Assembly: GCA_964510205.1 (NCBI GenBank)
Contig: CAZEBW010000004.1
Coordinates: 3,638-67,637 of the forward strand
Direction: 5' to 3'
DNA from: an uncultured Anaerolineae bacterium
Lineage (GTDB): Bacteria; Chloroflexota; Anaerolineae; VGOG01
DNA length: 64,000 nt
The notes under the pieces were generated by a model. The model ran no database searches and was not told the DNA's origin. It worked only from the letters and a program-made list of their open reading frames with translations. A program made the translations under genes and the position numbers. Shown here piece by piece: positions 1,840 through 58,587 of this stretch (position 1 is the first letter of the stretch; the number at the start of each line of letters is the position of its first letter).

Positions 1840-3929
<2,090 letters not shown>

Positions 3930-14727: not shown

Positions 14728-14903
14728 AGCACAAGCTCTCCTTGTTTCTGTCAGCACTCTTAAGGTACGTGAGACTGCCGTCCAGTGCGTTCAACACGAG
14801 CTTATCTGACGGCGCCACAGGTATCACCCAGTTTCCATAGATCGAGGCAAAACCAAAAGGCCGCGGCTCGATATCGAAAACGTTTTGCAATGAGGGTGCT
14901 CAC

Positions 14904-17205: not shown

Positions 17206-17241
17206 TTGTCGGATTCTCCCAAGCGCGGCGCGTCCTTCAGT

Positions 17242-18717: not shown

Positions 18718-18757
18718 TGCTACCCTCTTCATCAACTGTCTGATGGGACGCTCCGGG

Positions 18758-19639: not shown

Positions 19640-19665
19640 GGCACTCCTGCCGATTGCATCTTGTC

Positions 19666-20453: not shown

Positions 20454-20455
20454 GA

Positions 20456-24193: not shown

Positions 24194-24228
24194 GGGTCAC
24201 TCTCCTTGTCATCTGTAAATGGGCAGAT

Positions 24229-25569: not shown

Positions 25570-25621
25570 TTTCTAGCTCCAAATCACGCGATACACCGAA
25601 CGTTATTGTAGATGCATGAAT

Positions 25622-25650
25622 ATTATATCAAACCTGTCCTTAAATGTCAA
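25622..25650 (-). promoter_or_regulatory. Perfect consensus sigma-70 promoter for the island operon
   Basis: The minus strand reads TTGACA (25650-25645), an exact 17-nt spacer, then TATAAT (25627-25622), set in an AT-rich gap. About 50 nt of 5'UTR with a GGAG RBS precedes ATG 25569. Confidence 0.65.
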
Positions 25651-25704
25651 GGCATCCAAAATACTGGATAGACATACACCGTATCGTTCAAGGAGTTGGG
25701 GTAA

Positions 25705-26070
25705 TCACACATTCGGGTGATGGCACTTCTTCCCAGTCGAAAATATCTCTAGCGAAGGGGCATCATATCGAGGCCCTCCTTCGAAGTCCCTAACGAACCG
25801 GTAAAACTCGTCAATGAAGCTGACTAATTCATCAGTATGCTCACTGATCGCCTTGACATCAGGGGAGATGTTCTCCTTGAGTTCCCTCTTGAACTTTTCA
25901 TCCTTCTCCTCAAGAGCAGCCCAATCCCAAGCCCCGTCAAGGTACTTGCGAATCTCCCCTAGCACATGATCTCGTGCGAGTGTGAGATCAGATGGGCAAT
26001 CTTTTGCCTTTAATCTACGATAATCTAATTCCATTTCCCTGCAAAGGGCTGGCGCATGGTCTCTGTCCAT
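25705..26070 (-). CDS. Hypothetical protein; possibly the C-terminal part of a frameshifted lipoprotein gene
   Basis: 121-aa ORF. Its frame is open upstream to 26124 and it overlaps the 26025-26249 ORF. Confidence 0.4.
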   Translation of the reverse strand: MDRDHAPALCREMELDYRRLKAKDCPSDLTLARDHVLGEIRKYLDGAWDWAALEEKDEKFKRELKENISPDVKAISEHTDELVSFIDEFYRFVRDFEGGPRYDAPSLEIFSTGKKCHHPNV

Positions 26071-26249
26071 CCCCTCGAAACTCTCAACACGTGAGTCAAA
26101 TTCATTGAGCGATTGACCAGCTCACAGGCATATTCCCTTACCAATTTGACATCAGCAGGTTTTGAGGATGTCTGCTCAGGGCTGCAGGCCATGACCACCG
26201 GCATTAGAAAACAAAACAGAAGTAGCAAGACAATCTTTTTCATGAGCAC
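26025..26249 (-). CDS. Lipoprotein signal peptide ORF (74 aa); possibly the N-terminal part of a frameshifted gene
   Basis: MLMKKIVLLLLFCFLMPVVMACS is a lipobox signal. The ORF ends 45 nt after the next ORF begins in another frame. Confidence 0.4.
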   Translation of the reverse strand: MLMKKIVLLLLFCFLMPVVMACSPEQTSSKPADVKLVREYACELVNRSMNLTHVLRVSRGWTETMRQPFAGKWN

Positions 26250-27872: not shown

Positions 27873-27920
27873 TCTCTTGTCAGCCTGAAGTTTACCAGAT
27901 TGTGGATGAATAGTCAAGAC

Positions 27921-27975
27921 GGTTCACTTTTCACGTTTTTTACGTTTCACGTTTCACGCTTCACGCATCACGTAG
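27921..27975. repeat. Heptamer tandem array TTTCACG (about 7 imperfect copies)
   Basis: ggttcacttttcacgttttttacgtttcacgtttcacgcttcacgcatcacgtagg. Confidence 0.8.
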
Positions 27976-29502: not shown

Positions 29503-31119
29503 TTGATGAAAGCTATACTGTCTCCAAGTGGCAGACGTAAAACGTCAAGCGTGAAACGTGAAACGTCAAACGTAGAACGTCAAGCGTCAGGTGCCAGGGG
29601 TCAAACGTTGAGGTTCAAAGCTATCTTGGCGACCTTGCTGATAAGCTTGGGGGCGCTGATCTTGTGCCAATCCCTGAGGGTGGAAGGGTCGCCCGTCCCC
29701 GCCTCTCCTGTCCTCCAGACTGAGGAGGAGAGGACGGCGGCGAGCGACGCGCCGTATCGGGCCCGCATCGTGATCAGCACTTCCTCTGACTGGACGCGGC
29801 TCTACGTTCGAGGTGGAGAGCGCATTTTGAACGCCAAAACTGCTATCCTGCAGGGCGACGCCGCCACGACGAAAGCGGAGTGGGACGGCGACGAGCTCTA
29901 TTTGGAACAGCCTCTGGCCAATGCTCCAGCCCAGACGGTCAAAGTGCAGTACGATCTGGTGATGACGGGCCTGGACAGTGACGGCCACGTCTTCTTCGAG
30001 AGCCAGAAAGGCGATTTGGGCGTCACCACCACGGAGTTCTACAATTACAGCTCATCTTCCGCTACTCCCATCGCCTCCTGGTCCAATCTGCTGGACAAAG
30101 CGGGCGATCCTTCCAATCCCTTCTCTTTTTCCATAGCCAGTTCCCATTTCACAACGGGTGGTCCCCTGCCCCTGCGGCACGTCTCGCCCAGATTGGTTTT
30201 GGCCTTTTATTATCCCTGGTACGATCTCGATTCCTGGTCGAGCCCAGTTCTCGAGGACCATCCGCTCATGCCTGCTAGTTCCGGCGACGTGGAAGCCATC
30301 ACCAGGCACGTCACCTGGGCACAGCAGCATGGCATTCACGGCTTCATCTCGTCCTGGTGGGGTTCGGGCAACTACCGCGATGCCAATTTCGCCAAGTTGC
30401 TCTCCGTGGCGGAAGGCACCGATTTCAAAGCAACTATCTACTTCGAAACCCTGGGCGAACGTTTCAGGACCCCCCAGGACGTTGTTCATCAGTTGGAGTA
30501 CGTCCTGGATTCCTACAGCGATCACCCCAACTTCCTGCGCTATCGGGGCCAGCCGGTGATTTTTCTTTACGCTGTGGACCACGTAGCCAGAGAGCCCGGC
30601 CAACCCCCCCTTCAGTCCTGGCAAGCCATACTGGGGCAGATGCGGGCTGATGGTTACGATGCAGTGTGGCTCGGCCAGACCTTCGATCCCAGCTATCTGC
30701 AGGTGTTCGACGGCCTGCACGCCTACGGCTTCTATGCCCCAGATATGGCTGAGGTGTACGCTTCGGTTTCGGGCCAGGTGAGGAGCTATCAATTCCTGCA
30801 CGACCCGACCGCCGAGCGGAAGATCTGGGCGCCAGCGGTCATGCCGGGCTATGACGACGACCTGTTGGGCCGCCCAGGTTCCTGGTATCTGGATCGAGCC
30901 GGTGGGGACGCCTACGGCTTCACTTTCCAAGCGGCCATTCAGTCCCAGGCCGATTGGATCGTCATCACCAGCTTCAACGAGTGGTGGGAGCACACTCACA
31001 TCGAGCCCAGCGACCGCTACGGGTTCACTTATCTGGGGCTGACTAAGGAGTGGTCGGACGCTTTTCTGGCTGGAGCTCCTCAACTCACTTTCCTGCCCCT
31101 GATCACCAAGAACTGGTAG
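29503..31119 (+). CDS. Membrane-anchored glycoside hydrolase, GH99-like
   Basis: N-terminal TM anchor. LAFYYPWYDLDSW and ITSFNEWWEHTHIEPS resemble GH99 endo-alpha-mannosidase blocks (recalled from memory). An alternative TTG start at 29608 would exclude the repeat-encoded tail. Confidence 0.5.
   Translation: MMKAILSPSGRRKTSSVKRETSNVERQASGARGQTLRFKAILATLLISLGALILCQSLRVEGSPVPASPVLQTEEERTAASDAPYRARIVISTSSDWTRLYVRGGERILNAKTAILQGDAATTKAEWDGDELYLEQPLANAPAQTVKVQYDLVMTGLDSDGHVFFESQKGDLGVTTTEFYNYSSSSATPIASWSNLLDKAGDPSNPFSFSIASSHFTTGGPLPLRHVSPRLVLAFYYPWYDLDSWSSPVLEDHPLMPASSGDVEAITRHVTWAQQHGIHGFISSWWGSGNYRDANFAKLLSVAEGTDFKATIYFETLGERFRTPQDVVHQLEYVLDSYSDHPNFLRYRGQPVIFLYAVDHVAREPGQPPLQSWQAILGQMRADGYDAVWLGQTFDPSYLQVFDGLHAYGFYAPDMAEVYASVSGQVRSYQFLHDPTAERKIWAPAVMPGYDDDLLGRPGSWYLDRAGGDAYGFTFQAAIQSQADWIVITSFNEWWEHTHIEPSDRYGFTYLGLTKEWSDAFLAGAPQLTFLPLITKNW
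29534..29590. repeat. Heptamer tandem array GAAACGT (reverse complement of the TTTCACG family)
   Basis: gacgtaaaacgtcaagcgtgaaacgtgaaacgtcaaacgtagaacgtcaagcgtcagg. It lies in the 5' end of the 29503 ORF and is encoded as RRKTSSVKRETSNVERQAS. Confidence 0.8.
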
Positions 31120-34815: not shown

Positions 34816-34882
34816 GTGATTCGTAGGTTCGTAGATTCGTAAATTCGTGGGTTCGTAGATTCGTAAGTTCGTAGATTCGTGT
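34816..34882. repeat. Octamer tandem array TTCGTAGA (about 8 imperfect copies)
   Basis: gtgattcgtaggttcgtagattcgtaaattcgtgggttcgtagattcgtaagttcgtagattcgtg, immediately upstream of eno. Confidence 0.85.
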
Positions 34883-38447: not shown

Positions 38448-38580
38448 GGGGTTCGTAGATTCGTAAATTCGTAAATTCGTAAATTCGTAGATTCGTAGAT
38501 TCGTGGGTTCGTGGATTTGATCCCGAATTTATGAGTCCCGAGTCTACGAATCTACCAGTTTCACGTTTCACGTTTTACGG
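38448..38580. repeat. Octamer array TTCGTAGA (about 9 copies), one inverted unit, then TTTCACG heptamers
   Basis: ggggttcgtagattcgtaaattcgtaaattcgtaaattcgtagattcgtagattcgtgggttcgtgg ... tctacgaatcta ... cagtttcacgtttcacgttttacgg. Confidence 0.85.
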
Positions 38581-38800
38581 TAATGGTGACAGGCAGTAGG
38601 ATTCTGTTGTCCTTTATCTCTCCATCATCTCCCAAGATTGGCAATCGTTGCTCTGTCGCCAGTTCGTACATTCCGACCTCCAGCCAATGTGGTCCCGCTG
38701 GAGTGTCCTCTCGGACAGTCAGGATGTACTCGTCTTCGATGACCTCGCCGACGTCCCAGACGGAAGTGGGATAATCGCCCTCCAAAGGCTGGCTGTCCAT
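38561..38800 (-). pseudogene. Detached C-terminal half of the second C-terminal module of the 38882-40990 GT-C protein
   Basis: In the same frame as the upstream ORF, 27 sense codons after its TAA. YPTSVWDVGEVIEDEYILTV...LEVGMYELATEQRLPIL...NRILL aligns with the ends of the paralogs. Confidence 0.7.
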
Positions 38801-38821
38801 CTGCCCCCAGATGTGCGCCGC

Positions 38822-38893
38822 GACGTCATGTGATGAAGCCGCCGCGACGTCATATGATGAAGCGGCCTCGACGTCATATGATTAAGCGGCCTC
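38822..38893. repeat. 24-bp tandem repeat, 3 copies
   Basis: gacgtcatgtgatgaagccgccgc / gacgtcatatgatgaagcggcctc / gacgtcatatgatTaagcggcctc. The third copy carries the stop codon of the GT-C ORF. Confidence 0.9.
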
Positions 38894-40990
38894 GTCAATC
38901 AGGTGGGTGAAGATGGTGTAATCGGTGTCCATCTCTGCCTCAGCTCGCCAGTAGAGGGTCAGGTGGATCTCCTCGTCTGGCCTAAGCTCGACTTTGTCCA
39001 CTTTGTATCCGATCAGAGTGACCTTGTTATCCAGGTTGAAATCCAACGGGTTATCAATCGCTACCTCCCGACGTTCTCGCGGGAGCATCTTCAACTGACC
39101 GATGACGACGCTTGGGGGATCAAGTTTTGAACCAGTGGTGGGGTCGTAGTGCCCCACCTCAACTCGCACGAGGCTGGGCGCTTGGGCGTCCTCGCTGATG
39201 GGCAGCCGATAGGCGTCGGCGATGATCCCCCCTGGGGCCCACAAGCTGGTGGGATACGAACCCCAACCGGGATAGGTGTCCTCAGATCCCACTAGTTCGC
39301 CCCCGCGCCCCAGCAGGTGGATAAACAGGTAGTAGTCCTTCTCCTCCATCTCCGCCAGCCCCTGCCAGTAGAAAGTGACGCCCAGCGTCTCGCCCGGCCT
39401 GACCGTCTCTCTATCTAGTTTGAAACCGAGCAGTCGGATTTTCTCTCCAAAATCGTGGACCACCCCTGGCGGGACCTCGCTGGGGGAGACGATGGGCGGC
39501 CTGGCGTAGGCAGGGTGGATGTAGACAAATGGACAGAGGGCGGCGAAGGCGAACATGGCCAGACCTATCACCGTCACCAGGATGTTAACGTATCTCCCAG
39601 ATACCAGTTGGCTCAGGCCCAGCATCAGCAGGACGGATATGGCGGAGATGGCGGGAAATAGCAGCCGTCCCTGGCTGGCGGGCGTCGTCCACGTCCAGCG
39701 AACTAGTCCCGCGAAGACGATGCCCAGCCAGAGGATGAGGACAAAGAAACCAGGTTTTTCCCGTTTCACAGTACTTCCCTGGGCGTTTGGAGTGTTCGTA
39801 AACTGGTGTGTTTTGGGTCCAAAGGATGCGAAAAACCTGGTTTCTGACAACCAACGCCGTCTCACAAACCAAATCCCCAAGCCCACCAGGGCCAGCAAGC
39901 TTACCACGTCCAGGATGGCGTAGGCGGCGGGCGCAACCAAGATGCTGAACCAGCCAAACAGCGCCCAGAAAGACATGCGCAGGCCCCGAAACTCGCCCCA
40001 CAGTTCTGACAGATTCGATGGCCCACTATCTCGGCCCACCACGGCCAGCATGGCGTTGAGGCCGGTCGGGTCCCCGTAAAGCTGCCAATTCCTGACGTAC
40101 CACCAGCCAGCCACCGCCAGCACTACGGCAAGGACGATCAGCCCCCCGATCAACGGCCTCGCCGACCGGCGGCGGTAGGCTTGCACGACGAGGACGACGG
40201 CGGTCAAGATCAACAGGCCCAGGCCGCTGAGCTTGGAGAGGCAGGCCAAACCTAGGACGAGGCCCAACAACACGTAATACGCAATACGCAATACGAACAG
40301 GCGGCGTGTTGCGTACTGCGTATTGCGTATTTCGTATTGCGTATTGCGTACCAACAGAAGCAGCGTCAGTGACGATAGGAAGACCACTAGATTGTCGTTG
40401 TTGATGGAGCTGCTGATGAACAAGAACTGCGGGATGAAGGCGTTGATGGCTGCGGCGCCGAGGGCGAGGTGTTCGCGGTCAGGGAAGACCTCCAGAGCGA
40501 GTCTATGCGTCAAGAACACGGTGCCTGCCCCCAGGAGCACCGACAGCAGGCGGACGAGGTGCACCGCCAAAGCTGTGCCCTGAAAGGGGAAACTCTCCCG
40601 CCGGGTATGGACGATCACGTTCTTGTTGCCTGCATCCAGCGGCGTGCCGACGTTGCGCTGGGGATTGTACCAGAGTAGGTCCTCCGCCTCGCTGGTATCG
40701 CTCCAGAAAGTGGTCAGTGCGCCGATCAGGTAATACAGAGGCGGCTGGCTGCCCTCCTGCTCCCACAATCCCGGCTCTTCGGGGTTCTGCACCGGCAGTC
40801 CCTTCCCATCAGCAAGATGCTTGATGAAGAAGTAGTGGTAGATCTCATCGGGCGCCTCGAAGATGGGCGTGACCAGGCTGTAGGTGATGCCCAGGGCGAT
40901 GAACGTGGTTAGAATTAGGGTTATGGCCCAGTGTTGTCTCATAGTGCAAAGTCCTACGTCCCACGTCCTACGTCTCACGTCCGAAGTCAT
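38882..40990 (-). CDS. GT-C fold glycosyltransferase (PMT/ArnT-like, GT39/83 type), paralog 1; truncated by an in-frame TAA
   Basis: N-terminal loop FEAPDEIYHYFFIKHLADGKGLP (acidic DE motif), about 11 TM helices, and C-terminal LTLYW-type modules. ATGA start/stop overlap with paralog 2. Confidence 0.8.
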   Translation of the reverse strand: MTSDVRRRTWDVGLCTMRQHWAITLILTTFIALGITYSLVTPIFEAPDEIYHYFFIKHLADGKGLPVQNPEEPGLWEQEGSQPPLYYLIGALTTFWSDTSEAEDLLWYNPQRNVGTPLDAGNKNVIVHTRRESFPFQGTALAVHLVRLLSVLLGAGTVFLTHRLALEVFPDREHLALGAAAINAFIPQFLFISSSINNDNLVVFLSSLTLLLLVRNTQYEIRNTQYATRRLFVLRIAYYVLLGLVLGLACLSKLSGLGLLILTAVVLVVQAYRRRSARPLIGGLIVLAVVLAVAGWWYVRNWQLYGDPTGLNAMLAVVGRDSGPSNLSELWGEFRGLRMSFWALFGWFSILVAPAAYAILDVVSLLALVGLGIWFVRRRWLSETRFFASFGPKTHQFTNTPNAQGSTVKREKPGFFVLILWLGIVFAGLVRWTWTTPASQGRLLFPAISAISVLLMLGLSQLVSGRYVNILVTVIGLAMFAFAALCPFVYIHPAYARPPIVSPSEVPPGVVHDFGEKIRLLGFKLDRETVRPGETLGVTFYWQGLAEMEEKDYYLFIHLLGRGGELVGSEDTYPGWGSYPTSLWAPGGIIADAYRLPISEDAQAPSLVRVEVGHYDPTTGSKLDPPSVVIGQLKMLPRERREVAIDNPLDFNLDNKVTLIGYKVDKVELRPDEEIHLTLYWRAEAEMDTDYTIFTHLIDEAA
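40273..40351. repeat. Inverted pair of heptamer arrays AATACGC / GCGTATT inside a CDS
   Basis: gtaatacgcaatacgcaatacgaa...ttgcgtactgcgtattgcgtatttcgtattgcgtattgcgtac, translated as VRNTQYEIRNTQYATRRLFVLRIAYY. Confidence 0.85.
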
Positions 40991-41024
40991 TGACTTAGGA
41001 CCTCGGACTTAGGACCTAGGACTA
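40951..41024. repeat. Inverted heptamer arrays GTCCTAC(G) / GGACCTA spanning a gene junction
   Basis: gtcctacgtcccacgtcctacgtctcacgtcc and ggacctcggacttaggacctaggac. These encode the N-terminus of paralog 1 and the C-terminus of paralog 2. Confidence 0.75.
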
Positions 41025-43332
41025 TTCTCACTTTGCTCAACAGGATTCGGTTGCCCATCAGCCGGCCGTCCTGGTCGAGGAGGTCTAAGCGATTCCCGGT
41101 CTCAGCCAGGTAGAGCCCCACCTCGATCTCGTAGACGTCGGGAGGGGCGTCGGGGGCGATGTCTAGCTCGTATTGGTCCACGACGATTTGCCCCCTGGCC
41201 CAGGCGGAAGTGGAAGGCTGCGGCTGGCGGTCCGCTCCTGCCCAGATCTGATCTCCCTCTCTCAGCAGGTGGACGAAGACGGTGTAGGCGTCCCTCATCT
41301 CGGCCAGGCTCTGCCAGTACAGAGTAAGGTGGATGGCTTCGCCCGGCTCGGCCTTTCTGCGGTCCATCTCGTAGCCCACCAGGGCGATCTGGCCCCCAAA
41401 GTTGAAATGCACCGGATTGGGCAGCCCGGTTTCGGACCTGGGCAAGACCCCGATTTTCCCGAAGCGCACGTTATCTCCCGCAAGTTCTCCATTGGCCCCG
41501 TACACGGGTAGGCGTTCGCCCGTCGCAGCGTCGTAAGGCCCCACCTCCAGTTGGGCCGAACTGGGGGCGTAGGTCGTCTCTGGCAGCGTCAGGGTGTAGG
41601 CGTCCGCGATGGCGTCGCCGGCCTGCCACAGCGTGGTAGGGAAGCTGCCCAGTCCGGGGAAGGTGTTCCTCTGGGCTATGACGAGATCGTTTTCGTCCAG
41701 CAGGTGAACGAAGACGGCGTAGTCCCGGTTCATCTCGGCCAGGGATTGCCAGTACAGGGTGACGGTTAGCGAATCGCCGGGTTGCAGGTTGTAGGTTGTA
41801 GGTTGCAGGTTGTAGCCCAGCAGCTTCATCACTCCGCCGAAGTTCATATCCAGGCGATTTGGGATGGCCTCGATCTGTTCGGGAGAGAGCAGGGGCGGCC
41901 TGGCGTAGGCTGGGGCGATGTAGGCCACGGGACAGATGCAGGCGAACACGAACATCGCTCCGGCCAGCAGGGCTGTGGCCTTGCCTCGCCAGCGGGTGGG
42001 AATGAGTTGTAACCATCCCAGCAGGGGCAGGATGGCGAGGGACGCAGTGGCTGGGAAGAGGTGCCGCCCAGAGGGTGCAAAGACCCACTGCAGCCAGCGC
42101 AGCAGGGCGGCGAAGACCAGTAAGCTCCACAGCAGGAGCAGGGCTAAGCCCTGCCATGTGTCATTGCGAGGAGCGGAGCGACGAAGCAATCTCCTCCTTG
42201 CGGCTTGGGGATTGCTTCGCTTCGCTCGCAATGACACATCCGTGAGTTTGGTCCCGTTTCTAACGACTAGAACTAACAGCCCCAGGGCGCCCAGGCGCAC
42301 CACAATTCGCAGGACGGTGTAGATCCAAGGGTGGACGTGGACATTGCCCCAGCCGAAGGCGGCCCAAAAGGACAGCTCCATCTGAGAGAACTCGTGGATC
42401 AACTCGCCGAGGGTGAGCTGCGGCCGGCCGGGGCCCACGATGGCTTGGTGGATCTGCACCCCCAGCGGGTCGCCGTGCAATCGCCAATTCAAAGTATACC
42501 ACCATCCGGCTACGATGGCAACAACAGCAAAGACGATCAGGCATGCCTTGAGAAAGGCCCACCCAGAGCCTCTGCGCCAGGCGGCCATGGCGATGGCCAC
42601 GACCGCAGCAGGCAGCAGGGCCAGCGCGCTCGCTTTGGTGATGAGGGCCAATCCCACGGTCAGCCCCAGCCAGACCAGACGGCGGGTGGAGAGGCCCCTT
42701 CTCCTCAGGCGGACCATGAGCCACAGGGCCAGGGTGCACAGGGCCGACACTGCGCTGTCGTTGCTCACTGCACTTGATATAAAGATGAACTGCGGATTGA
42801 AGGCCACCAGGCCCGCTGCACCAGCGGCGAAAGAACGTTGCCGGGGGAACAACTCCAGCGCAATCAGATAGGTGGCCAAGACGGTGGTTGCTCCCCAGAG
42901 CACCGACACCAGGCGGGCCATACGAACGGCCAACACCGCGCCGCGATAGGGGAAGCGTTCCTCGTTGGTGTGAAGCACTCGGTTTTTGTTGTCGTTGACC
43001 GTGCCAGGCGCGCTGTAGCCCCAGAAAGGATTGAGCCACGCCAGGTTCTGCCAATCGTCGTCTTCGATCCAGAACGTAGCCAAAGCCGCCGTGACATAAT
43101 ACAGTGGGGGCTGGGTGGCCTCCTGTCTCATCAGAGGCTGCGTTTGCGCCAGGCTCTGCACCGGCAGACCTTTCCCGTCGCCCAGCCATTTGACGTAAGG
43201 GTAATGCCACAACTCGTCGGGCTTCTCGAAGAGGGGCGTGGCTGCGTTGTAGGCGATGCCCAGGGCGAAAAACGCGGTTAGGATTAGGATGATGGCCCAA
43301 TGTTGTTTGATGGTCCGAGGTCCCCTATCCAT
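40987..43332 (-). CDS. GT-C fold glycosyltransferase (PMT/ArnT-like), paralog 2
   Basis: FEKPDELWHYPYVKWLGDGKGLP, multi-TM core, and two C-terminal modules of about 120 aa (TVTLYWQSLAEM..., HLTLYWQSLAEM...). Confidence 0.85.
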   Translation of the reverse strand: MDRGPRTIKQHWAIILILTAFFALGIAYNAATPLFEKPDELWHYPYVKWLGDGKGLPVQSLAQTQPLMRQEATQPPLYYVTAALATFWIEDDDWQNLAWLNPFWGYSAPGTVNDNKNRVLHTNEERFPYRGAVLAVRMARLVSVLWGATTVLATYLIALELFPRQRSFAAGAAGLVAFNPQFIFISSAVSNDSAVSALCTLALWLMVRLRRRGLSTRRLVWLGLTVGLALITKASALALLPAAVVAIAMAAWRRGSGWAFLKACLIVFAVVAIVAGWWYTLNWRLHGDPLGVQIHQAIVGPGRPQLTLGELIHEFSQMELSFWAAFGWGNVHVHPWIYTVLRIVVRLGALGLLVLVVRNGTKLTDVSLRAKRSNPQAARRRLLRRSAPRNDTWQGLALLLLWSLLVFAALLRWLQWVFAPSGRHLFPATASLAILPLLGWLQLIPTRWRGKATALLAGAMFVFACICPVAYIAPAYARPPLLSPEQIEAIPNRLDMNFGGVMKLLGYNLQPTTYNLQPGDSLTVTLYWQSLAEMNRDYAVFVHLLDENDLVIAQRNTFPGLGSFPTTLWQAGDAIADAYTLTLPETTYAPSSAQLEVGPYDAATGERLPVYGANGELAGDNVRFGKIGVLPRSETGLPNPVHFNFGGQIALVGYEMDRRKAEPGEAIHLTLYWQSLAEMRDAYTVFVHLLREGDQIWAGADRQPQPSTSAWARGQIVVDQYELDIAPDAPPDVYEIEVGLYLAETGNRLDLLDQDGRLMGNRILLSKVRIVLGPKSEVLSQ
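41779..41816. repeat. Heptamer array GGTTGTA/GGTTGCA inside a CDS
   Basis: gggttgcaggttgtaggttgtaggttgcaggttgtag, translated as YNLQPTTYNLQP. Confidence 0.85.
42154..42240. repeat. Palindromic (MITE/REP-like) element, copy 2, in-frame inside the GT-C paralog 2 CDS
   Basis: catgtgtcattgcgaggagcggagcgacgaagcaatc...gattgcttcgcttcgctcgcaatgacacatc, translated as a loop ...DVSLRAKRSNPQAARRRLLRRSAPRNDTW... Confidence 0.8.
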
Positions 43333-43583: not shown

Positions 43584-45926
43584 TTATTTGACTCGTACTT
43601 TGCTCAACAGCACGCGGTCGTCCAGCAGCCGCCCGCCCTCCCCCACGATTCTCAGGCGGTCGCCTGTCTCCGCCAGGTAGAAGCCTATCTCGACGTCGTA
43701 CACGTCGGCGGGAGTGTCGGCATAGATGGTAAGTTCGTATTCGTCCACTATCGTCTGGCCGGGCTGCCAAGTCGAAGTGGGGGACTTGCCGTCCAGGGGC
43801 CAGCTATCCTCTTGGGCCCAGATGCGGTTCTCTTCTCCCAAAACGTGGGTGAACACGGAGTAGTCTTCTTTCATGTCAGCCAGCCCCTGCCAGTAGAGGG
43901 TCAGGTGGATGGTCTCGCCGGGCGCGGCCGTCCGTCGGTCCATATCGTATCCGACGAGGGCGATCTTGTTTGCGAAGTTGAAGTGGACGGGGTTGGGCGC
44001 CTCTGCTTCAGCTCGGGGCAGGATCTCGAATTGGTGGAAGCGGACGTTGTCGCCCAGGGCCTCTCCATTGGGAGCGTAGGCCGACAGCCGCTCCCCGGTG
44101 TCGAAGTTGTAGAGTCCCACGGCCAGTTGGGCTTGGTTGGGGGCGAAGGCCGTCTCTGGCAGGATGAGGACGTAGCGGTTGGCGATGGCCTCTCCTGGCG
44201 ACCAGAGGCTGGTGGGATAGAGGCCCTGTCCGGGGTACATGTCTCGTTGGGCGACGATGAGCTCGGTTTGGTCGAGCAGGTGGACGAAGGTGCTGTAGTT
44301 CTCGTTCATTTCGGCCAGGGCTTGCCAGTAGAGGGTGACCTCCAGTGAATCGCCAGGTTTCAGGTGACTGGGTATTGGGTATTGGGTATTGGGTATTGCG
44401 TAGCCTAGCAGCTTGATCACTTCGCCGAAGGAGACGTCGAGGCGGTTGGGGATGGCCGCGATCTCTGCTGGTGAGAGGGGTTGGGGTTTGGCGTAGGCGG
44501 GGGCGATGTAGCGGAAGGGGGTGGCGGCGGCGATGATGAACATCAGGCTGCCCAGCAGGCAGGCCAGCGTTTTGGTGTAAGCGAAGCGGCGGTTTTTGTA
44601 AGCGAAGCGACGGCGTCGGGGCACGAACTGGCTCAGGCCCAAGAAGAGCAGGATGGAGAGGGCCGAGATAGCTGAAAAGACCAGTCGCCCTTGAGAGGAC
44701 CAGGTCAGCAGCGCCCAGCGGATCAGGGATATGAACACGATGGCCGGCCAGGCCAGCAGCAGCGCTACTTTGATCCAGGCCTCTGGCCGTGGTTTGTCTC
44801 CAATCAATTTGCGAATCAGGAAGGCGATCACCCCCAGGGCGGCTGCTATGGCCATGAGATTCAGCAGGTCGTAGACCCAGGCATCCATGGGCACGTTCAC
44901 CCCGCCGAACAGGCCCCAGTACGACATGGCGAAGCCCTCACGCTCCCCCCACAATTGACGGAGGGTGGCGGGCGGGTGGCGCCGGCCCAGAATGTCCAGG
45001 AACACGTTTAGCCCCAGGGGGTCGCCGTAGAGCTTCCAATTCCTGACAAACCACCAGCCTGACAGGAGTGCAGCCAGACCCACCACGATGAGGCCGCCTT
45101 GCAGGAGAGTTCGCCAGGAGCGTTGACGGTAAGCAGCGTAGGCGACGGTCAGGCCCGCCAGCGCCAGGAGACCGATGGCGCTCTCTTTGGTCAGGATGGC
45201 CAATCCTATGACCAGCCCCAGCCATGCCCAATCGCGGTTTGCGGTTTGCGGTTTGCGATTTGCGATTTGTGGTTTGCGATTTGTGATTTTGACCATCATC
45301 AGCAGGGCCAGGCTGCACAAGGGCACCACCAAGTTGTCGTTGTTGATCGCGCCGCTGACGAACAGGAACATGGGAGTGAAGGCGTTGACGGCGGCTGCGC
45401 CCAGGGCCAAGTCCTCGCGGCCGGGGAAGATCTCCAGAGCGAGCAGGTAAGTCAGCAGCACCGTGGCCGCTCCCATCAACACCGAGAGGAAGCGTATGAG
45501 GTGCACGGCCAGGGCCGTCCCATGCCAGGGGAAGGCCTCTTGTTCGGAGTGTATGACCAAATTGGTGTTGCCGTCGGCGGTCAGCACGCCGTTATCCACG
45601 TGGGGGTTGGGCCATAACAGGGGCGGCTGGCCGTGGTAGGCGTCGTCGGTGTCAATCCAGAAAGTGGCCAGGGCGCCCAGGGCGTAGTACAGGGGCGGCT
45701 GGCTCCCCTCCTGCCGCCAGGGCTGATCAATGCCGGGATCCTGCACGGGTAGACCGTGGCCGTCCGCCAGGTGCTTGACGAAGGGGTAGTGCCACAACTC
45801 GTCGGAGGCCTCGAAGATGGGTGTGACTACGCTGTAGGCAACGCCCAGGGCGATAAACGTGGCCAGGATGAGGGCGATGGCTAAAGGTTGTAGGTTGTAG
45901 GTTCTAGATTTTAGGGTTGCGTTCAT
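43584..45926 (-). CDS. GT-C fold glycosyltransferase (PMT/ArnT-like), paralog 3
   Basis: FEASDELWHYPFVKHLADGHGLP, multi-TM core, and two C-terminal modules. ATGA overlap with paralog 4. Confidence 0.85.
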   Translation of the reverse strand: MNATLKSRTYNLQPLAIALILATFIALGVAYSVVTPIFEASDELWHYPFVKHLADGHGLPVQDPGIDQPWRQEGSQPPLYYALGALATFWIDTDDAYHGQPPLLWPNPHVDNGVLTADGNTNLVIHSEQEAFPWHGTALAVHLIRFLSVLMGAATVLLTYLLALEIFPGREDLALGAAAVNAFTPMFLFVSGAINNDNLVVPLCSLALLMMVKITNRKPQIANRKPQTANRDWAWLGLVIGLAILTKESAIGLLALAGLTVAYAAYRQRSWRTLLQGGLIVVGLAALLSGWWFVRNWKLYGDPLGLNVFLDILGRRHPPATLRQLWGEREGFAMSYWGLFGGVNVPMDAWVYDLLNLMAIAAALGVIAFLIRKLIGDKPRPEAWIKVALLLAWPAIVFISLIRWALLTWSSQGRLVFSAISALSILLFLGLSQFVPRRRRFAYKNRRFAYTKTLACLLGSLMFIIAAATPFRYIAPAYAKPQPLSPAEIAAIPNRLDVSFGEVIKLLGYAIPNTQYPIPSHLKPGDSLEVTLYWQALAEMNENYSTFVHLLDQTELIVAQRDMYPGQGLYPTSLWSPGEAIANRYVLILPETAFAPNQAQLAVGLYNFDTGERLSAYAPNGEALGDNVRFHQFEILPRAEAEAPNPVHFNFANKIALVGYDMDRRTAAPGETIHLTLYWQGLADMKEDYSVFTHVLGEENRIWAQEDSWPLDGKSPTSTWQPGQTIVDEYELTIYADTPADVYDVEIGFYLAETGDRLRIVGEGGRLLDDRVLLSKVRVK
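44368..44405. repeat. Heptamer array GGGTATT inside a CDS
   Basis: ctgggtattgggtattgggtattgggtattgcgtagcc, translated as IPNTQYPIPS. Confidence 0.85.
45229..45293. repeat. Heptamer array GGTTTGC/GATTTGC (about 8 copies) inside a CDS
   Basis: cgcggtttgcggtttgcggtttgcgatttgcgatttgtggtttgcgatttgtgatttt, translated as KITNRKPQIANRKPQTANRDW. Confidence 0.85.
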
Positions 45927-48900
45927 TGCACTTGCACCTTGCTCAACAGAATGCGGTCGCCGGGCAAAGGTTCGCCCTGTTCATCGAAAGCGGGAAGTCG
46001 CTGCATGGTCTCCAAATCGTACATCCCCACTTCGATCTGGTACTCGCCGGCCGGTGCGGCCGCGTCCACGATGATCTCGTATTCGTCTACCACGACCTCG
46101 CCGGGAAGCCAGCTCGTCGTCGGATGCGCGCCCCTCATGGGAAGGTTATCTTTTTGCCCCCAGGTGCGATTCTGGGCGTCTACGAGGTGGGTGAAGACGG
46201 TGTAGCTGGTCTCCATTTCTTGCTGTAAGCGAAGCGGCGCTTGCCAGTAGAGGGTGAGGTGCAGCGTGCCGCCTGGCTTCACGGTGGTCTTGTCGAGATC
46301 GTAGCCGAGGAAGGCCACCTTGTCAGCCAGGTTCGCTCGCAAGGGATGTTGGATGTCGGTGGGCGCGGTGAAAAGCCGCTCAGGGGCGATTACCGACAAT
46401 GTCGCCAGAGGTTGGAAGTCGGAAGTTGGAGATTGGAGGTTGGAAGGTTGAATTTTGAAGTTTAAGCTTTGCTCGCCCGTTGGAGCAGCGGCATCAACCG
46501 CCAGGTCGTATTGGCCGCGAATGACCTCGCCTTCCTTCCAGCGGCTGGTGGGGTATTCTTCGTTGGCCAATGGGAACTCTCCCCTGGCCCAAACGTTTCC
46601 CGTGCTGTCTTGCATCTGTAGATGAAGGCGGTAGTCGCTTTCCATCGAGCGCAGCGCCCGCCAGAAGAGCGCGGCTCGCATTGTCTCCCCCGCCCGCGCT
46701 TCGGTGGACGACAGGTCGTAGCCCAGGAGTTCCACCTGGCCGTCGAAGTCGTGACGCAGGGGGTGGGGGATGGCCAGCTCCTCGATGGTCGGCGGCACGC
46801 TGGGGCTGGCTACGGCGACTGTCCCCAAGGCGTACTCCGTACCCGCTGGCGCGTTCCTTTCGTCCAAGATGCGCAGGCTTTGCAGCGTGTCCACATCATA
46901 AACGACCAGCTCCACTTGATAGCGGCCCGGCGGGATGCCAGGCAGCAGGGAGAGGGTATGATGCCTCTCCACGATCCCGCCCACCTCCCAGGCATAGGTC
47001 GCCAGGCCGTCTTCGTTCTCCAGCCATTCGTCTGTTTGGCTCCAAAGGCGCCCCTGTTCGTCCACCAGGCGGAGGGAGAGGGCGTAGCCCTCCTGCATCT
47101 GCGCCTGGGTCTCCCACCGAAGGGCGACCCCCAACTGCTTTCTGTACTCGATGATGTCCCCGGTGAAGCCGTGGCCCGTCAGCCGCAAGCGGTTGCCGAA
47201 ATTGACGTTAGCCTGGACCTGGATGGGGCTCAAATCCAGGTCCAGAGGAGAGGTGAGGAGATAGCGAGAGACGGTGGTATGGGGAAGGGCCTCTCGGCCG
47301 ATGAGCAGGGCATGGGTATTCAGTTGGTAACTGATCCAATTGCCCATATCGCTTTCTGGGTAGGCCACGTACCATAGCTGTCGGGGCGCGGCGGACTCTG
47401 TTAGCTTGTCGGTCATGTCGGTCCAGCCCTGGCTATCGGAGACGACGTAGTAGGTCAGCGGCCCTTGATAATGCTTGACGAAGGGCGAGTCGGCGTCGAG
47501 CAGCACGACGTCGTCCGGCTGAGCCTGGCTCTCCAAATAGGCGATCAGCTCTTGGTAGTAAGTGTTGGGATAGATCCAGGCGTAGTCCACGCCGCGAATC
47601 TTGACCACGTGCTCTGGCTGCTGTTGACCGTGGAGAGCCGCTGTGACGGGCGAGTCTTGCTGCACATCGCTGACGTAGAGCACGGCGTAATCGGCGGTAG
47701 CTGTGTTGTGCTCCGTCAGTGCTTCCGTCTGGCCCTTGAACAGGGGGGCGAACCCTGGGATGTCCCAGGTGGCAACGCGAAGGTCTGTTGCATTCTCCTT
47801 TTGATTCAAATATCTGGCCGCCAGATCCATGCCCTCGCCCCAGCCCGCGGGCAGGATTTGGATGGCTCTGGATGTGCCGCCCAGCAGGGGGTTGGCGTAG
47901 GCCAGATAGTAGGGATGGTAGGGCAAGGCGAGAGCAGCCTGGAGGAGCACCACTAAGCTCAGAGCCAGCTCGATCCCCCATCTCCAATGCCTGGATAGGA
48001 AGGCTTCGATGAAATAGACCCACCCAACAGCGGCCAGGATGTCAAGGGCCAGAAAGGCGGGCAATAGATACCGCTCGAACTTCTTGGCCCCCACGGCCAG
48101 AGTGATCGTGACCAGGGAAACGTAGACGAGCAGGGCGAGTACCTCGAACCACTTCGAACCTCTTTTCTTTACGATGGCCCAAAATGCTGCTGCCAGTAGG
48201 CCCAGCCAGACGAGGGGCGTCGTCCTGAAGAGCAGGCTGAAGGGATAGAACCAGGGGCCTGGGTCGGAGACGGACTGACCGAGGAAGAAGTTGACGGGGT
48301 GAGGGGTGGCGGCGAAGCGGTGGGCGAGTCCGAAGGTGCCGCGCAGGGTCTCGACGGGAGAGACCCACATAGCTGGCCAAAGGGCCACAAAAGCGATAAC
48401 CGCTACCATGCACCACACCGAGAGGGACCGTAGCGAACTGAAAATCGGCTTGGCCCACGCCTGCCCTGAGCCTTGTCCTGAGGCCGCTTCGCCTACAGTC
48501 GAAGCGTGTCGCCGGAGGATTGCCGACTTCGTGAGACCCTCGAAGCTGAGCAAAAGGGCGGCGAAGGGTAGCAGAGCGAAGGCGGTGGCCTTGGTCAGAA
48601 AGGCCAGGCCGGCTAGGCACCCTGAGAGGCCGAGGTAAACAAGGGAGCGATTATGCCTCAGGTAGACGAGAAGGCTCAGGACGGACAGGATCATCAGGTT
48701 GGCCGCCGCCCCGTCGGTGTGGAAGACTCGCGAATGGGCCAGGTGGAAGGGGTCGAAGCAAATCAAGAGCGCGGCCAGGAGGGCCACCCTCCCCCCGAAG
48801 AGTTTCCTGGTCAGGAGGTATACCCCCACCGCGCTCGCTGCGCCGAGGAGAACGAGTGGGAGCTTGGCTGCCACCAGGAAGAGGGCCAGGCGGCGCAGGG

Positions 48901-49234
48901 CAGCTACGTTGTACAAATCAAGCGTGGCTAGCTGTTGCAGCCAGTTCCACTCGGCCGCCCCTTGCCCCAGCAGGAGCTGGCCGGCTGCCCCCAAAGCCCC
49001 GGCCCACATGATGGTCACCCCAGGCGCCCCCACCTGGAAGGTATCGGCGAAGCGCCCGCTCTCTATGGCAGAGAGGAAGCGGAGCGAGCGGTAGACCCAC
49101 ATTGGCTCGTCCCAGGTGATGAAGGTGTTGAGGGCCAGGATGCGGGGCAGCAAGGCCAAAACGAAAAGGCCCAGGCAGATGAGCGTTTGTCGCTTCTTGT
49201 TACGAAATCGCATTCGCCGCTGGCTCATTTTCAA
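45923..49234 (-). CDS. GT-C fold glycosyltransferase (ArnT/PMT-like), paralog 4, 1103 aa
   Basis: ITWDEPMWVYRSLRF N-loop, multi-TM core, a central soluble region and three C-terminal modules. Confidence 0.8.
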   Translation of the reverse strand: MKMSQRRMRFRNKKRQTLICLGLFVLALLPRILALNTFITWDEPMWVYRSLRFLSAIESGRFADTFQVGAPGVTIMWAGALGAAGQLLLGQGAAEWNWLQQLATLDLYNVAALRRLALFLVAAKLPLVLLGAASAVGVYLLTRKLFGGRVALLAALLICFDPFHLAHSRVFHTDGAAANLMILSVLSLLVYLRHNRSLVYLGLSGCLAGLAFLTKATAFALLPFAALLLSFEGLTKSAILRRHASTVGEAASGQGSGQAWAKPIFSSLRSLSVWCMVAVIAFVALWPAMWVSPVETLRGTFGLAHRFAATPHPVNFFLGQSVSDPGPWFYPFSLLFRTTPLVWLGLLAAAFWAIVKKRGSKWFEVLALLVYVSLVTITLAVGAKKFERYLLPAFLALDILAAVGWVYFIEAFLSRHWRWGIELALSLVVLLQAALALPYHPYYLAYANPLLGGTSRAIQILPAGWGEGMDLAARYLNQKENATDLRVATWDIPGFAPLFKGQTEALTEHNTATADYAVLYVSDVQQDSPVTAALHGQQQPEHVVKIRGVDYAWIYPNTYYQELIAYLESQAQPDDVVLLDADSPFVKHYQGPLTYYVVSDSQGWTDMTDKLTESAAPRQLWYVAYPESDMGNWISYQLNTHALLIGREALPHTTVSRYLLTSPLDLDLSPIQVQANVNFGNRLRLTGHGFTGDIIEYRKQLGVALRWETQAQMQEGYALSLRLVDEQGRLWSQTDEWLENEDGLATYAWEVGGIVERHHTLSLLPGIPPGRYQVELVVYDVDTLQSLRILDERNAPAGTEYALGTVAVASPSVPPTIEELAIPHPLRHDFDGQVELLGYDLSSTEARAGETMRAALFWRALRSMESDYRLHLQMQDSTGNVWARGEFPLANEEYPTSRWKEGEVIRGQYDLAVDAAAPTGEQSLNFKIQPSNLQSPTSDFQPLATLSVIAPERLFTAPTDIQHPLRANLADKVAFLGYDLDKTTVKPGGTLHLTLYWQAPLRLQQEMETSYTVFTHLVDAQNRTWGQKDNLPMRGAHPTTSWLPGEVVVDEYEIIVDAAAPAGEYQIEVGMYDLETMQRLPAFDEQGEPLPGDRILLSKVQVQ
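46409..46468. repeat. Heptamer array GGTTGGA/AGTTGGA (about 8 copies) inside a CDS
   Basis: gaggttggaagtcggaagttggagattggaggttggaaggttgaattttgaagtttaagc, translated as LNFKIQPSNLQSPTSDFQP. Confidence 0.85.
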
Positions 49235-53848: not shown

Positions 53849-56074
53849 CTATGGCCCGAAGTTCTTGAGCACCAGCGGCAAATAGACGTGGTAGGCGGAT
53901 GTCGGCGTTGTCGTGGATGTGGCAGTGCTGGTTGCGGTAGGCGTAGGTGTGCGGGTGGCCGTTGGTGTGTTGGTCAGCGTTGGAGTCAGCGTGTTTGTAG
54001 GCGTTGGTGTGTTAGTCGGTGTTGAGCTTGGCGTGGCGGTAGAGGTTGATGTAGAGGTGGGCGTCGGCGTAGGCTCGTCTGTGATGCGCAAGATGAGGAG
54101 GCCACCTGCGTTATCGGCCACGTAGACGTAGTCCCCGGCCACCTGAACGCCTCTGGCATCGCCGGGCGTGTCAAAGGCCCCAACTTCGATGGGATTTTCC
54201 TTGTCAGCCACGGAGACGATCCGCAGGCCAGCGCTTCCATAGGCCACGTAGGCGAGGTTTCCTACGACCTGAACGTCGAAGGCCCAGCCACGGATGTCAA
54301 ATGAGCCGACCTCGGTGGGATGGGCCTTGTCGGCCACCGAGATGATCCGCAGACCGCCCCCCCGATCGGCGACGTAGGCATAACTGCCAGCCACGTGCAC
54401 ACCGCTTGCCCGGTCGGGTGTATCGCAGAAGCCTTCCTCTGTAGGATTGGCCTTGTCGGCAATGGAGATGACGCGCAGCCCGCTTTCTCCGTCGGCGACG
54501 TAAGCGTGGTTGCCGACCACGTGCACGCCGCTTGCCTGGTCGGGTGTATCGCAGAAGCCTTCCTCTGTGGGATTGGCCTCATCGGCAACGGAGATGATGC
54601 GCAGCCCGCTTTCTCCATCGGCGACGTAGGCATAAGCCGCTGTCGCTTCCGAGGCCGCTGCCGCTTCGCCCACTACATGAACGCCTTTGGCGTCATCGGG
54701 CGTCTCGGCGAAGCTGACTTCGGTGGGGTTTGCTTTGTCCGAAACGGAGATGACGCGCAGCCCAGCCACGCCATCGGCGACGTAGGCGTAAGCCGCTGCC
54801 GCTTCCGAGGCCGCTGTCGCTTCCGAGGCCGCTTCTGCTTCCGAGTCACCCACCACGTAAACGCCCTTAGCCGAACCAGTGGTATTCCAGAAGCCTTCTT
54901 CTGTAGGATTGGCCTTGTCGGCCACCGAGATGACTCTAAGTCCCTCGTCCCACTCAGCGACGTAGGCATAGTTCACTTCCGAGGCCGCTTCCACATAAAC
55001 ATCCCTTGCCTCGCCAGCGGTGTCGAAGAAGCCTTCCTCTGTCGGACTGGCCTTGTCGGCCACGGAGATGACTCGGAGGCCGCCTGTCTCATCGGCGACG
55101 TAAGCGCGGTTGTCAGCTACGTGAACGTCGAACGCTCGGTCGGGTGTGTCACAGGAACCGACTTCAGTGGGATTCTCCTTGTCGGCCACCGAGATGACCC
55201 GCAGCCCGCCGTAGTTGTGGGCGATGTAGGCATGGTCGCCCACAACGTGGACCTTCCTGGCATAGCCAGATAGGTCCAGATGGCCAGTCTCAGAAGGATT
55301 CTGCTTGTGGGCGACTGAGATCACCCGCAGACCTCTATCCCAATTGGTGACGTAGGCGTGGGCCGCTCCCGCTTCCGAGTCGTCCATGACGTGAACGCCA
55401 TTGGCCGAGCCTGGCATATCGAAGAAGCCGACCTCGGTGGGGTTGGCCTTGTCGGCGACGGAGATGATCCGAAGCCCTCCGGTTCCAGCAGCGACGTAGG
55501 CGTAGGCTCCCAAAACGTGGACGTCTTCTGCCGAGTCGGGCGTGTAGAGGGAGCCTACCTCGGTTGGATTCGCCTTGTCAGCAACGGAAATGATCCGCAG
55601 CCCGCTCCACTCGTCGGCCAGGTAGGCGTACTCGCCAACGACATGAACGCTGTGGGCACGGTCCAAATCTAGGTGACCTACCTCAGTGGGGTTGCCTTTG
55701 TCGGCAAGCGAGATGATCCTTAGGCCCCCGTCCCCAGCGGCGATATAAGCGTAGGCCGTTTCCACTTCCGAGTCCCCTTCCACGTGGATGTCCCTCACGA
55801 TGCCGGGGAGCGCTTCAGTGCGTCCCATCTCGGTGGGGTTGGCCGGATCGGAGACATCCACGATGACCAGCTTCAGCCCGTTGCCGACATAAGCGTACTG
55901 TCCGGCGACGTGAACGGCGTGAGTCGCTCCCCTAATCTGGCCCACTAACTCCAGCGCCAAACCGTTCTGGGCGCCCTGGGGCGGAAGGGCCAGCCCCGAA
56001 AGGGAAGTGCCCGCCAGGATAAGTGCGAGGCTGATGACGACCGGGGCAATCTTCCAGAGATGTTCTTTGTTCAT
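53849..56074 (-). CDS. Secreted LVIVD-repeat (beta-propeller) protein with Thr/Pro-rich linker and short conserved C-terminal tail
   Basis: Signal-anchor MNKEHLWKIAPVVISLALILAG. At least 12 repeats of GLR(I/V)ISVADKANPTEVG...DVHV.G.YAYVA. The C-terminal section is PTPTPTSTSTS... followed by YLPLVLKNFGP. Start taken at ATG 56074; 56086 is possible. Confidence 0.8.
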   Translation of the reverse strand: MNKEHLWKIAPVVISLALILAGTSLSGLALPPQGAQNGLALELVGQIRGATHAVHVAGQYAYVGNGLKLVIVDVSDPANPTEMGRTEALPGIVRDIHVEGDSEVETAYAYIAAGDGGLRIISLADKGNPTEVGHLDLDRAHSVHVVGEYAYLADEWSGLRIISVADKANPTEVGSLYTPDSAEDVHVLGAYAYVAAGTGGLRIISVADKANPTEVGFFDMPGSANGVHVMDDSEAGAAHAYVTNWDRGLRVISVAHKQNPSETGHLDLSGYARKVHVVGDHAYIAHNYGGLRVISVADKENPTEVGSCDTPDRAFDVHVADNRAYVADETGGLRVISVADKASPTEEGFFDTAGEARDVYVEAASEVNYAYVAEWDEGLRVISVADKANPTEEGFWNTTGSAKGVYVVGDSEAEAASEATAASEAAAAYAYVADGVAGLRVISVSDKANPTEVSFAETPDDAKGVHVVGEAAAASEATAAYAYVADGESGLRIISVADEANPTEEGFCDTPDQASGVHVVGNHAYVADGESGLRVISIADKANPTEEGFCDTPDRASGVHVAGSYAYVADRGGGLRIISVADKAHPTEVGSFDIRGWAFDVQVVGNLAYVAYGSAGLRIVSVADKENPIEVGAFDTPGDARGVQVAGDYVYVADNAGGLLILRITDEPTPTPTSTSTSTATPSSTPTNTPTPTNTLTPTLTNTPTATRTPTPTATSTATSTTTPTSAYHVYLPLVLKNFGP

Positions 56075-56099
56075 CTTTCCTTCCATTCGCTTCTCTTGC

Positions 56100-58539: not shown

Positions 58540-58587
58540 TCTAACCTTCGACCTCCAATCTCCAACCTCTAACCTCCAACCTCCATT
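58446..58587. repeat. Inverted heptamer arrays GGAAGGT/GGTGGAA and CCTCCAA bracketing the GT2 start codon
   Basis: ggaagttggaaggtggaaggtggaagatgg (58446-58476, in the CDS, encoded as HLPPSNFRLE) and ccttcgacctccaatctccaacctctaacctccaacctcc (58545-58585, in the 5' leader). Confidence 0.8.

Follow-up and report, generated by a model that had tools for sequence, protein, structure and literature searches.

We analyzed a 64,000-nucleotide (nt) stretch of DNA (hereafter the window; positions 3,638 to 67,637 of contig CAZEBW010000004.1, assembly GCA_964510205.1) from an uncultured Anaerolineae bacterium of the Chloroflexota, in which a predicted GT-C glycosyltransferase gene, here called p1, is cut short by an in-frame TAA codon located within a 24-bp tandem repeat. 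The reading that we favor, with a probability of roughly 0.6, is that this stop is a real and very recent nonsense substitution in the first unit (unit 1) of an in-frame coding minisatellite with three 24-bp units. The features concerned, in window coordinates, are as follows.

38882..40990, minus strand: p1, truncated GT-C (PMT_2) glycosyltransferase open reading frame (ORF), 702 aa from ATG 40990, taken from the ORF list
38882..38884, minus strand: in-frame TAA; its middle base, 38883, is T on the plus strand and A on the coding strand
38561..38881, minus strand: same-frame continuation of 106 sense codons plus TGA, comprising what remains of the repeat and the final five β-strands of the second C-terminal β-sandwich module (module 2)
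38819..38890, minus strand: tandem repeat, an in-frame coding minisatellite, with head-to-tail units 38867-38890, 38843-38866 and 38819-38842
38561..38800, minus strand: ORF of 79 aa that starts at the first ATG in frame beyond the stop, probably no independent gene

The p1 frame ends ...FTHLIDEAA-TAA and, with MDSQPLEGDYPTSVWDVGEVIEDEYILTVR... downstream of the stop, runs on as SYDVEAASSYDVAAASSHDVAAHIWGQMDSQPL...VKRET to a TGA at 38563-38561. An earlier note on this DNA had described this ending and the same-frame continuation, and its coordinates were confirmed. The note had also taken the downstream part to be the missing half of the last C-terminal module. Indeed, the downstream piece pairs residue by residue with the C-terminal half of each neighboring paralogue and matches orthologues from Anaerolineae metagenome-assembled genomes, specifically the allele L001 with 77% identity over 185 aa (E = 2e-92). 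The alternative that homologues naturally end at IDEAA, which the note had allowed for together with an insignificant downstream similarity, was rejected, as none of the ~45 orthologues or fragments inspected ends at ...IDEAA, orthologues continue past the site and the similarity is highly significant. Thus, an in-frame stop, a sense codon at the same place in relatives and a homologous frame that continues downstream, which together define a nonsense mutation, are all present. Reassignment of TAA was also considered and rejected, since TAA terminates other ORFs in the window (6 of 36).

Tandem Repeats Finder reported the array at 38817-38891 with a period of 24, 3.1 copies, 92% matches and a score of 122, and a search of the window with the consensus 24-mer returned exactly three units, with 0 expected from 100 shuffles. 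When up to 4 mismatches were allowed, no further copy of the unit was found in the 64-kb window beyond the GT-C site. The units encode (E/A)AASS(Y/H)DV. In coding-strand order, the stop sits in the first of the three: unit 1, GAGGCCGCTTAATCATATGACGTC, reads GAG GCC GCT TAA TCA TAT GAC GTC, and unit 2, GAGGCCGCTTCATCATATGACGTC, reads GAG GCC GCT TCA TCA TAT GAC GTC. These two units are identical at 23 of 24 positions, the sole difference being the stop-making base 38883, and 10 nt of identity between them lie 5′ of the variant base. Changes that create a stop by one substitution make up 8.3% of those in the repeat versus 3.6% in the rest of the gene (2.3-fold), and 18 of the 265 possible nonsense substitutions of the gene (~7%) fall inside the 72-bp repeat.

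The repeat is also present in five other alleles from related Anaerolineae (L001, L052/L053, L054, L057 and L102), all of them intact. Their nine units all read GCT TCA TCA at the homologous codon (9/9), and the direction of change was therefore from TCA to TAA. The ancestral codon is TCA (Ser) and the derived base is 38883, G>T on the plus strand and TCA>TAA on the coding strand. This bears out the single TCA-to-TAA substitution within a 24-bp tandem repeat that the earlier note had proposed, and a survey of codon state and copy number in relatives, all of them at most 76% identical, gave TCA in every allele with the repeat and 0-3 copies.

An AlphaFold2 model (pLDDT 86, pTM 0.81) was built of the orthologue P0004, which is 73% identical to p1. 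In this model the site of the insert and of the stop is the turn between strands 697-705 (DYTVFTHLI) and 717-723 (IWGQMDS), and five strands of module 2 come after the insert. Because the stop falls in the turn that precedes the last five strands of module 2, these five strands are lost from the 702-aa product. A 23-aa insert at this turn is missing from the paralogues, and the repeat is missing from most orthologues. The majority of orthologues, with 0 copies, read HLIDEEGNIWGQ, and at the hairpin the paralogues and most orthologues have HLIDE-EGN-IWGQ. One unit is found in P0004/L052/L053 and in L057, two in P0032/L054 and in L102, and three in L001 and in the window, with an identical insertion junction, HLIDE/.../(A)HIWGQ, in all carriers. 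By these alignments and the orthologue model, the repeat was inserted in frame, in certain lineages only, into a predicted β-hairpin turn. It behaves as a coding variable number tandem repeat, with a unit that is a multiple of 3, a reading frame that is kept and 0-3 copies at one site.

The window duplicated a GAG/TAT-type unit and L001 a CGT-type unit, and the two three-unit arrays therefore expanded independently. Neighbor-joining trees of the orthologues (P0001-P0034) are star-like, with repeat-bearing alleles scattered among 0-copy alleles, and L001, with its three units, is nearest to the 0-copy allele L002/P0002 (dS of 0.24 upstream and 0.51 downstream of the repeat). This non-monophyly of the repeat-bearing alleles suggests either recombination within the gene or recurrent gain of the repeat at one site.

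Several lines of evidence bear on the age of the stop. As units 1 and 2 are identical except for the stop base, the stop arose after a unit was last duplicated. Downstream of the stop, dN/dS is 0.14-0.18 in pairs of the window and an orthologue versus 0.10-0.26 in pairs of intact orthologues, and departures from conserved residues amount to 3/53 (5.7%) versus 20/394 (5.1%) upstream. Further stops, frameshifts or relaxed constraint were not found downstream of the stop, so that the region bears none of these marks of pseudogene decay and only a very young pseudogene is compatible with it. Among the options listed in the earlier note, "recent pseudogene" hence fits best. With respect to the reliability of the sequence, the window is densely tiled by long ORFs and p1 is its only same-frame, zero-gap split, which argues against a generally error-prone assembly. 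Searches of the protein, genome and metagenome collections found no relative with more than 76% identity over the whole protein (a C-terminal query that included the insert gave 63% at best), and a public contig index gave no exact match to p1 (with either of two starts), the downstream Wzy_C gene, enolase or the 79-aa ORF.

The p1 gene is one of four tandem PMT_2 genes, which are followed by a Wzy_C gene. The neighbors of p1 are the following.

40987..43332, minus strand: paralogue p2, 781 aa, PMT_2, intact, without the 24-bp repeat
43584..45926, minus strand: paralogue p3, 780 aa, PMT_2, intact, without the 24-bp repeat
45923..49234, minus strand: fourth PMT_2 paralogue, 1103 aa
36974..38437, minus strand: Wzy_C gene (O-antigen ligase/polymerase-like, by Pfam), directly downstream of p1

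The p1 start codon ATG 40990 overlaps the stop of p2 as ATGA, and an alternative in-frame start, ATG 40942 (MRQHW...), agrees with the N-termini of the orthologues P0016 and P0019. The orthologues of p1 are 68-76% identical to it and 716-806 aa long when complete, and related metagenome contigs share the gene order of several PMT_2 genes followed by Wzy_C (synteny in L052/L053). The match of p1 to the Pfam family PMT_2 (PF13231) is marginal, at 26.8 bits with a cutoff of 26.1; the three upstream neighbors match clearly, with 39.4, 42.5 and 51.7 bits, and the p1 orthologues carry an existing PF13231 annotation. The P0004 model has 11 long membrane helices followed by two C-terminal β-sandwich modules. 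In Foldseek searches its membrane part matched Pmt4 (9i5k_A, TM-score by target 0.58), ALG9 (9s6u_A) and AglB (3waj), and its C-terminal part gave only generic likeness to tandem Ig, arrestin and transglutaminase-barrel β-sandwich folds. An acidic motif, FEAPDEIYHY, lies directly after the first transmembrane (TM) helix, with at least 90% conservation of its D32 and E33 across a 60-sequence alignment (A1). The profile match, the GT-C fold of the orthologue and the Asp-Glu motif together identify p1 as a predicted PMT_2-type GT-C glycosyltransferase. It shares ~11 TM helices, the Asp-Glu motif after TM1 and the membrane fold with PMT/ArnT-type GT-C enzymes (PMT_2; Pmt4, ALG9, AglB). Unlike these, the p1 family adds two C-terminal β-sandwich modules, neither of which matched a Pfam family. 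Judging from Arg-rich loops and the helix count, these modules are probably extracytoplasmic, as in PMT-type enzymes.

The minisatellite is inserted in the hairpin turn (...FTHLIDE/EGN/IWGQ...) of the second C-terminal β-sandwich module in this one of the four tandem genes. In the reading that we favor, translation would halt after ...HLIDEAA, the last five β-strands of module 2 would not be made, and the enzyme produced would be crippled at its C-terminus, in effect a young pseudogene or a hypomorph. The truncated protein is presumably non-functional, and its loss may be tolerated thanks to the three adjacent paralogues, whose redundancy would account for the survival of the truncation. The 106 downstream codons would be an untranslated remnant that is too young to have decayed. 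As units 1 and 2 match everywhere but at the stop base, loss of one unit through a crossover 5′ of that base, within the 10 nt of identity, would presumably bring back the intact two-unit state known from L102/P0032. For the stop itself, the likeliest origin is an ordinary nonsense mutation of young age, or else a consensus error, in one of four redundant paralogues. For annotation, p1 is best recorded as a disrupted or truncated GT-C paralogue pending read support, which makes the stop a routine annotation matter.

Some observations weigh against a genuine nonsense substitution. The base call is that of the consensus, and the closest relative found is 76% identical; the complete lack of decay would be equally expected from an error or from a still-functional arrangement; and more than 30 related lineages retain an intact p1 orthologue under purifying selection (dN/dS about 0.2-0.3), which makes its loss unexpected a priori. 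The landing of the stop in the 72-bp repeat is, in addition, a mild coincidence that could reflect a repeat-related consensus problem. A less likely reading, which fits the facts on age and decay equally well, is that the TAA arose as an artefact of assembly, consensus calling or polishing, or is a variant of a minority strain that became fixed in the consensus, and that the true or dominant sequence has G at 38883 and an intact ORF of ~793 aa with three units. The entirely undecayed downstream part and the intactness of every other repeat-bearing allele agree with such an origin, and in a tandem repeat with few differences between its units reads can be misplaced and strains mixed. However, misplaced reads from a sister unit cannot create a base found in no other unit, and the variant must therefore exist in the reads; moreover, the 64 kb show no other signs of error, such as frameshift-like splits, among their dense long ORFs.

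The remaining explanations treat the TAA as part of a working arrangement, and each appears far less probable. The gene might be in a reversible off-state, similar to that of a contingency locus for an envelope-glycan enzyme, that the population ends by loss of the TAA-bearing unit or by conversion from unit 2, either of which would restore a working allele of two or three units. The near-identity of units 1 and 2, with 10 matching nt 5′ of the variant base, speaks for this. The natural intact one-, two- and three-unit alleles show that array length changes and that shorter arrays are functional, and a surface-glycan cluster (four PMT_2 genes plus Wzy_C) is a typical setting for phase variation. 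This is nevertheless improbable, since a unit that is a multiple of three keeps the frame when the length changes and a prior nonsense mutation is needed, and the stop occurs in only 1 of 6 repeat-bearing alleles, with no sign of an evolved switch. We give equally little credence to a split gene, in which the 702-aa enzyme and a separately translated 79-aa fragment, an option raised in the earlier note, re-associate to complete the last module. An in-frame ATG does lie 84 nt past the stop (ATG 38800) behind a G-run (tgggggcag), and the downstream part is undecayed. The G-run and ATG, contained in tgggggcagATG, however, are the conserved Trp-Gly-Gln-Met codons of the IWGQM found in all orthologues and hence not an evolved start signal; the run is only 3 nt from the ATG and lacks GGAGG, in contrast to the confidently called genes of the window, in which a GGAGG-like site precedes the start by 6-9 nt. 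Neither a signal peptide nor a TM segment is present in the fragment, and a Pfam search with it alone gave no match. Furthermore, as it comes after the 11th TM helix of a GT-C protein with its N-terminus inside, the C-terminal domain would lie outside the cell, beyond the reach of a cytoplasmic fragment.

Recoding, either as UAA read-through (also suggested in the earlier note) or as a gene-60-like hop from GCU (38887-38885) to a GCU 24 or 48 nt downstream, with HLIDEAASSYDVAAASSHDVAAHIWGQ as the two-unit junction peptide expected from the ribosomal hop, is likewise hard to credit. The tandem repeat supplies matched take-off and landing codons, with the take-off GCU directly before the UAA, and the local RNA is somewhat more stably folded than its shuffled versions (z = -2.0). 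Yet matched GCU codons at +24 and +48 nt are inherent to any tandem repeat, and any such repeat would give as much RNA structure. The stop is missing from all five other repeat-bearing alleles, so that a recoding site is not conserved, and dispersed copies of the unit (described below) occur only in stop-free frames, which argues that the unit is normally translated and that stops are selected against. A tRNA scan found no suppressor tRNA in the window, and an Rfam scan found no known RNA there. UAA is, in addition, in general the least leaky stop codon. Bacteria reportedly carry, on a wide scale, in-frame stops in sequence that remains under constraint (PMC7918605), which speaks for recoding; that report names only TGA as the leaky codon. 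Taken together, the prospect that the TAA-bearing unit permits a GCU-to-GCU bypass giving a two-unit protein, or acts as a population on/off switch through point mutation and unit loss or conversion, is a slim one. If it were true, a very small, mobile, ORF-colonizing repeat would constitute a built-in reversible gene switch.

A real and young nonsense substitution, the reading we retain, resembles the young in-frame stops described by Belinky et al. (2021; PMC7918605), in which one nonsense substitution strikes a codon that encodes an amino acid in all relatives, the sequence beyond it keeps its frame and its appearance of constraint, and the condition is short-lived on an evolutionary scale. 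It differs from those cases in that the stop lies inside an inserted coding minisatellite, from which it could in principle be removed by contraction, and in that the codon is TAA and not the leaky TGA stressed there. Similar to the contingency loci for phase variation of surface glycans (the simple sequence repeats of Haemophilus; PMC2651432), a tandem repeat is located in an envelope glycosyltransferase-type gene and varies in copy number between related genomes. Unlike in those loci, the 24-bp unit (8 codons) keeps the frame, and the off-state arises by point mutation and not by slippage. More generally, short in-frame repeat insertions would raise the nonsense risk of a gene, with damage that is potentially reversible by contraction.

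The 24-bp unit is not confined to the GT-C gene. A metagenome collection was scanned with the unit, accepting TCA or TAA, and yielded 21 arrays that share the unit and a CGCGGC continuation. About 12 different host genes other than GT-C genes contain 15 of these arrays. A further 41 unit matches had no such continuation and were all attributable to chance except one, a second copy in L088. The unit, GCCGCTTCATCACATGACGTCGCG, is often followed by a degenerate GCNGCTTCGCTTAC and occurs in frame, singly or in tandem arrays of up to 9 units (loci L057, L058, L064, L066, L067, L072, L075, L077, L083, L088, L089, L094, L096, L102, L103 and L107). The host ORFs encode 245-1693 aa and include glucose-6-P isomerase (PGI)-, G6P dehydrogenase (with nine units)-, XseA-, butyrate/acetate-kinase-, HdrA-, ABC-ATPase- and adenine-deaminase-like proteins. 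Several of them come from one assembly, SDBT01, which also carries a two-unit GT-C allele. Presence/absence polymorphism at homologous sites is seen both between GT-C orthologues with and without the unit and within L107, where domain 1 reads SSPYYD[AASSHDVAAASLT]AKFN and the internal paralogous domain 2, without an insert, reads SSPYYNPAKFN.

The unit was found in each of its four frames without stops (AASSHDVA, TSCDEAAA and RRHVMKRP were seen) and, among the dispersed copies, never in the two that contain stops. This restriction indicates that the unit is translated in place and that stop-bearing versions are selected against, which in turn marks the TAA of the window as a defect and not a tolerated feature. 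A hairpin or miniature inverted-repeat transposable element (MITE) nature of the unit seems improbable, as single units with their flanks had no convincing structure (z = 0.15 and -0.65); only a unit flanked by GCGGCCGC of neighboring units folded well (-10.2 kcal/mol, z = -2.7). From its distribution, the 24-bp unit looks like a dispersed, possibly mobile, coding-sequence repeat family in Anaerolineae. Beyond the content of the earlier note, then, the repeat is an insertion, its copy number is 0-3 across lineages and its unit is dispersed in other genes.

A close parallel may be the Rickettsia palindromic elements (RPEs), short repeats located in frame in unrelated protein-coding genes (reviewed in PMC10969869). 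In both cases one short sequence stands in frame in many unrelated conserved genes and is translated as an extra peptide that is apparently tolerated at surface positions. RPEs are ~150 bp long and clear palindromes, whereas the present unit has 24 bp, is single or tandem, has at most weak hairpin potential and belongs to a Chloroflexota host. The small dispersed repeats (SDRs) of heterocystous cyanobacteria are the subject of Elhai et al. (2008, Genome Res 18:1484; cited in PMC3116915). SDRs are reportedly about 21-27 nt long and mostly intergenic; SDR genomes are also said to be full of tandem heptamer repeats and to show presence/absence polymorphism at orthologous sites. Compared with SDRs by description, the 24-bp unit differs in lying almost only inside ORFs and in stop-free frames. 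The window genome resembles cyanobacteria rich in short tandemly repeated repetitive (STRR) sequences in its abundance of tandem heptamer arrays, and our literature search found no description of heptamer, STRR or short dispersed repeats in Chloroflexi/Anaerolineae. If the dispersal reflects an active mechanism, the unit would be a Chloroflexota counterpart of the Rickettsia RPEs and the cyanobacterial SDRs, and would offer a natural experiment on the protein positions that tolerate insertions. We regard the dispersed coding repeat as a more interesting lead than the stop itself.

In Anaerolineae genomes with the 24-bp unit, coding loops also receive insertions of heptamer arrays and hairpin elements, and p1 and p2 contain examples. 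Within the p1 coding sequence, 40268-40350 holds inverted heptamer arrays, CAATACG x4 and GCGTATT x6.7, with arms of up to 28 nt that are 89-100% complementary. These are translated as VRNTQYEIRNTQYATRRLFVLRIAYY in a loop that is probably cytoplasmic. At the same site orthologues have other heptamer-derived peptides (RNIQYPISNTK, SRITHHVSRFTFH and KIVNRKSKIENRN), and this p1 loop is therefore a hot spot for heptamer repeats. A 101-bp element at 39745-39845, also in the p1 coding sequence, has perfect 16-nt terminal inverted repeats (AGAAACCAGGTTTTTC / GAAAAACCTGGTTTCT) and is translated in frame as SETRFFASFGPKTHQFTNTPNAQGSTVKREKPGFF. As some orthologues carry it and others lack it or have a shortened form (P0005: SETRFFPLQKPGFF), it appears to be a MITE-like insert in a coding loop. 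In p2, a nested hairpin element at 42156-42239 lies in frame in the homologous loop, with perfect outer arms of 15 nt and inner arms of 13 nt, and its plus strand reads ...CHCEERSDEAISSLRLGDCFASLAMT... This motif presumably resembles one present in spurious ORFs of many bacterial genomes.

Further repeats are spread over the window. An octamer array, TTCGTAGA/GATTCGTA, with ~8 copies each and a 24-bp super-period, occupies two spacers 3.6 kb apart, at 34818-34880 upstream of enolase and at 38452-38517 between p1 and Wzy_C; the latter array pairs with an inverted partial copy at 38539-38561 that overlaps the p1 remnant in its last codons and TGA. Short tandem heptamer arrays with differing units are numerous, both in intergenic regions and in coding sequences (TYNLQPTTYNLQP in p2; RKPQIANRKPQTANR and NRRFAYKNRRFAY in p3), for example:

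1799-1830, 27919-27973, 29535-29589, 40951-41023, 41780-41815, 44369-44402, 45234-45289, 45885-45915 and 58446-58585: heptamer arrays

In the ORF at 53849-56140, a 126-bp tandem repeat (54310-54635; 2.6 copies, 83% identity) is followed at 54636-54845 by GCCGCT-type hexamer and 18-mer repeats. Finally, a ~14-kb block of minus-strand genes at 11841-26121 has a third-position GC content of 0.50-0.61 versus 0.68-0.87 elsewhere in the window, and may be a horizontally acquired island.

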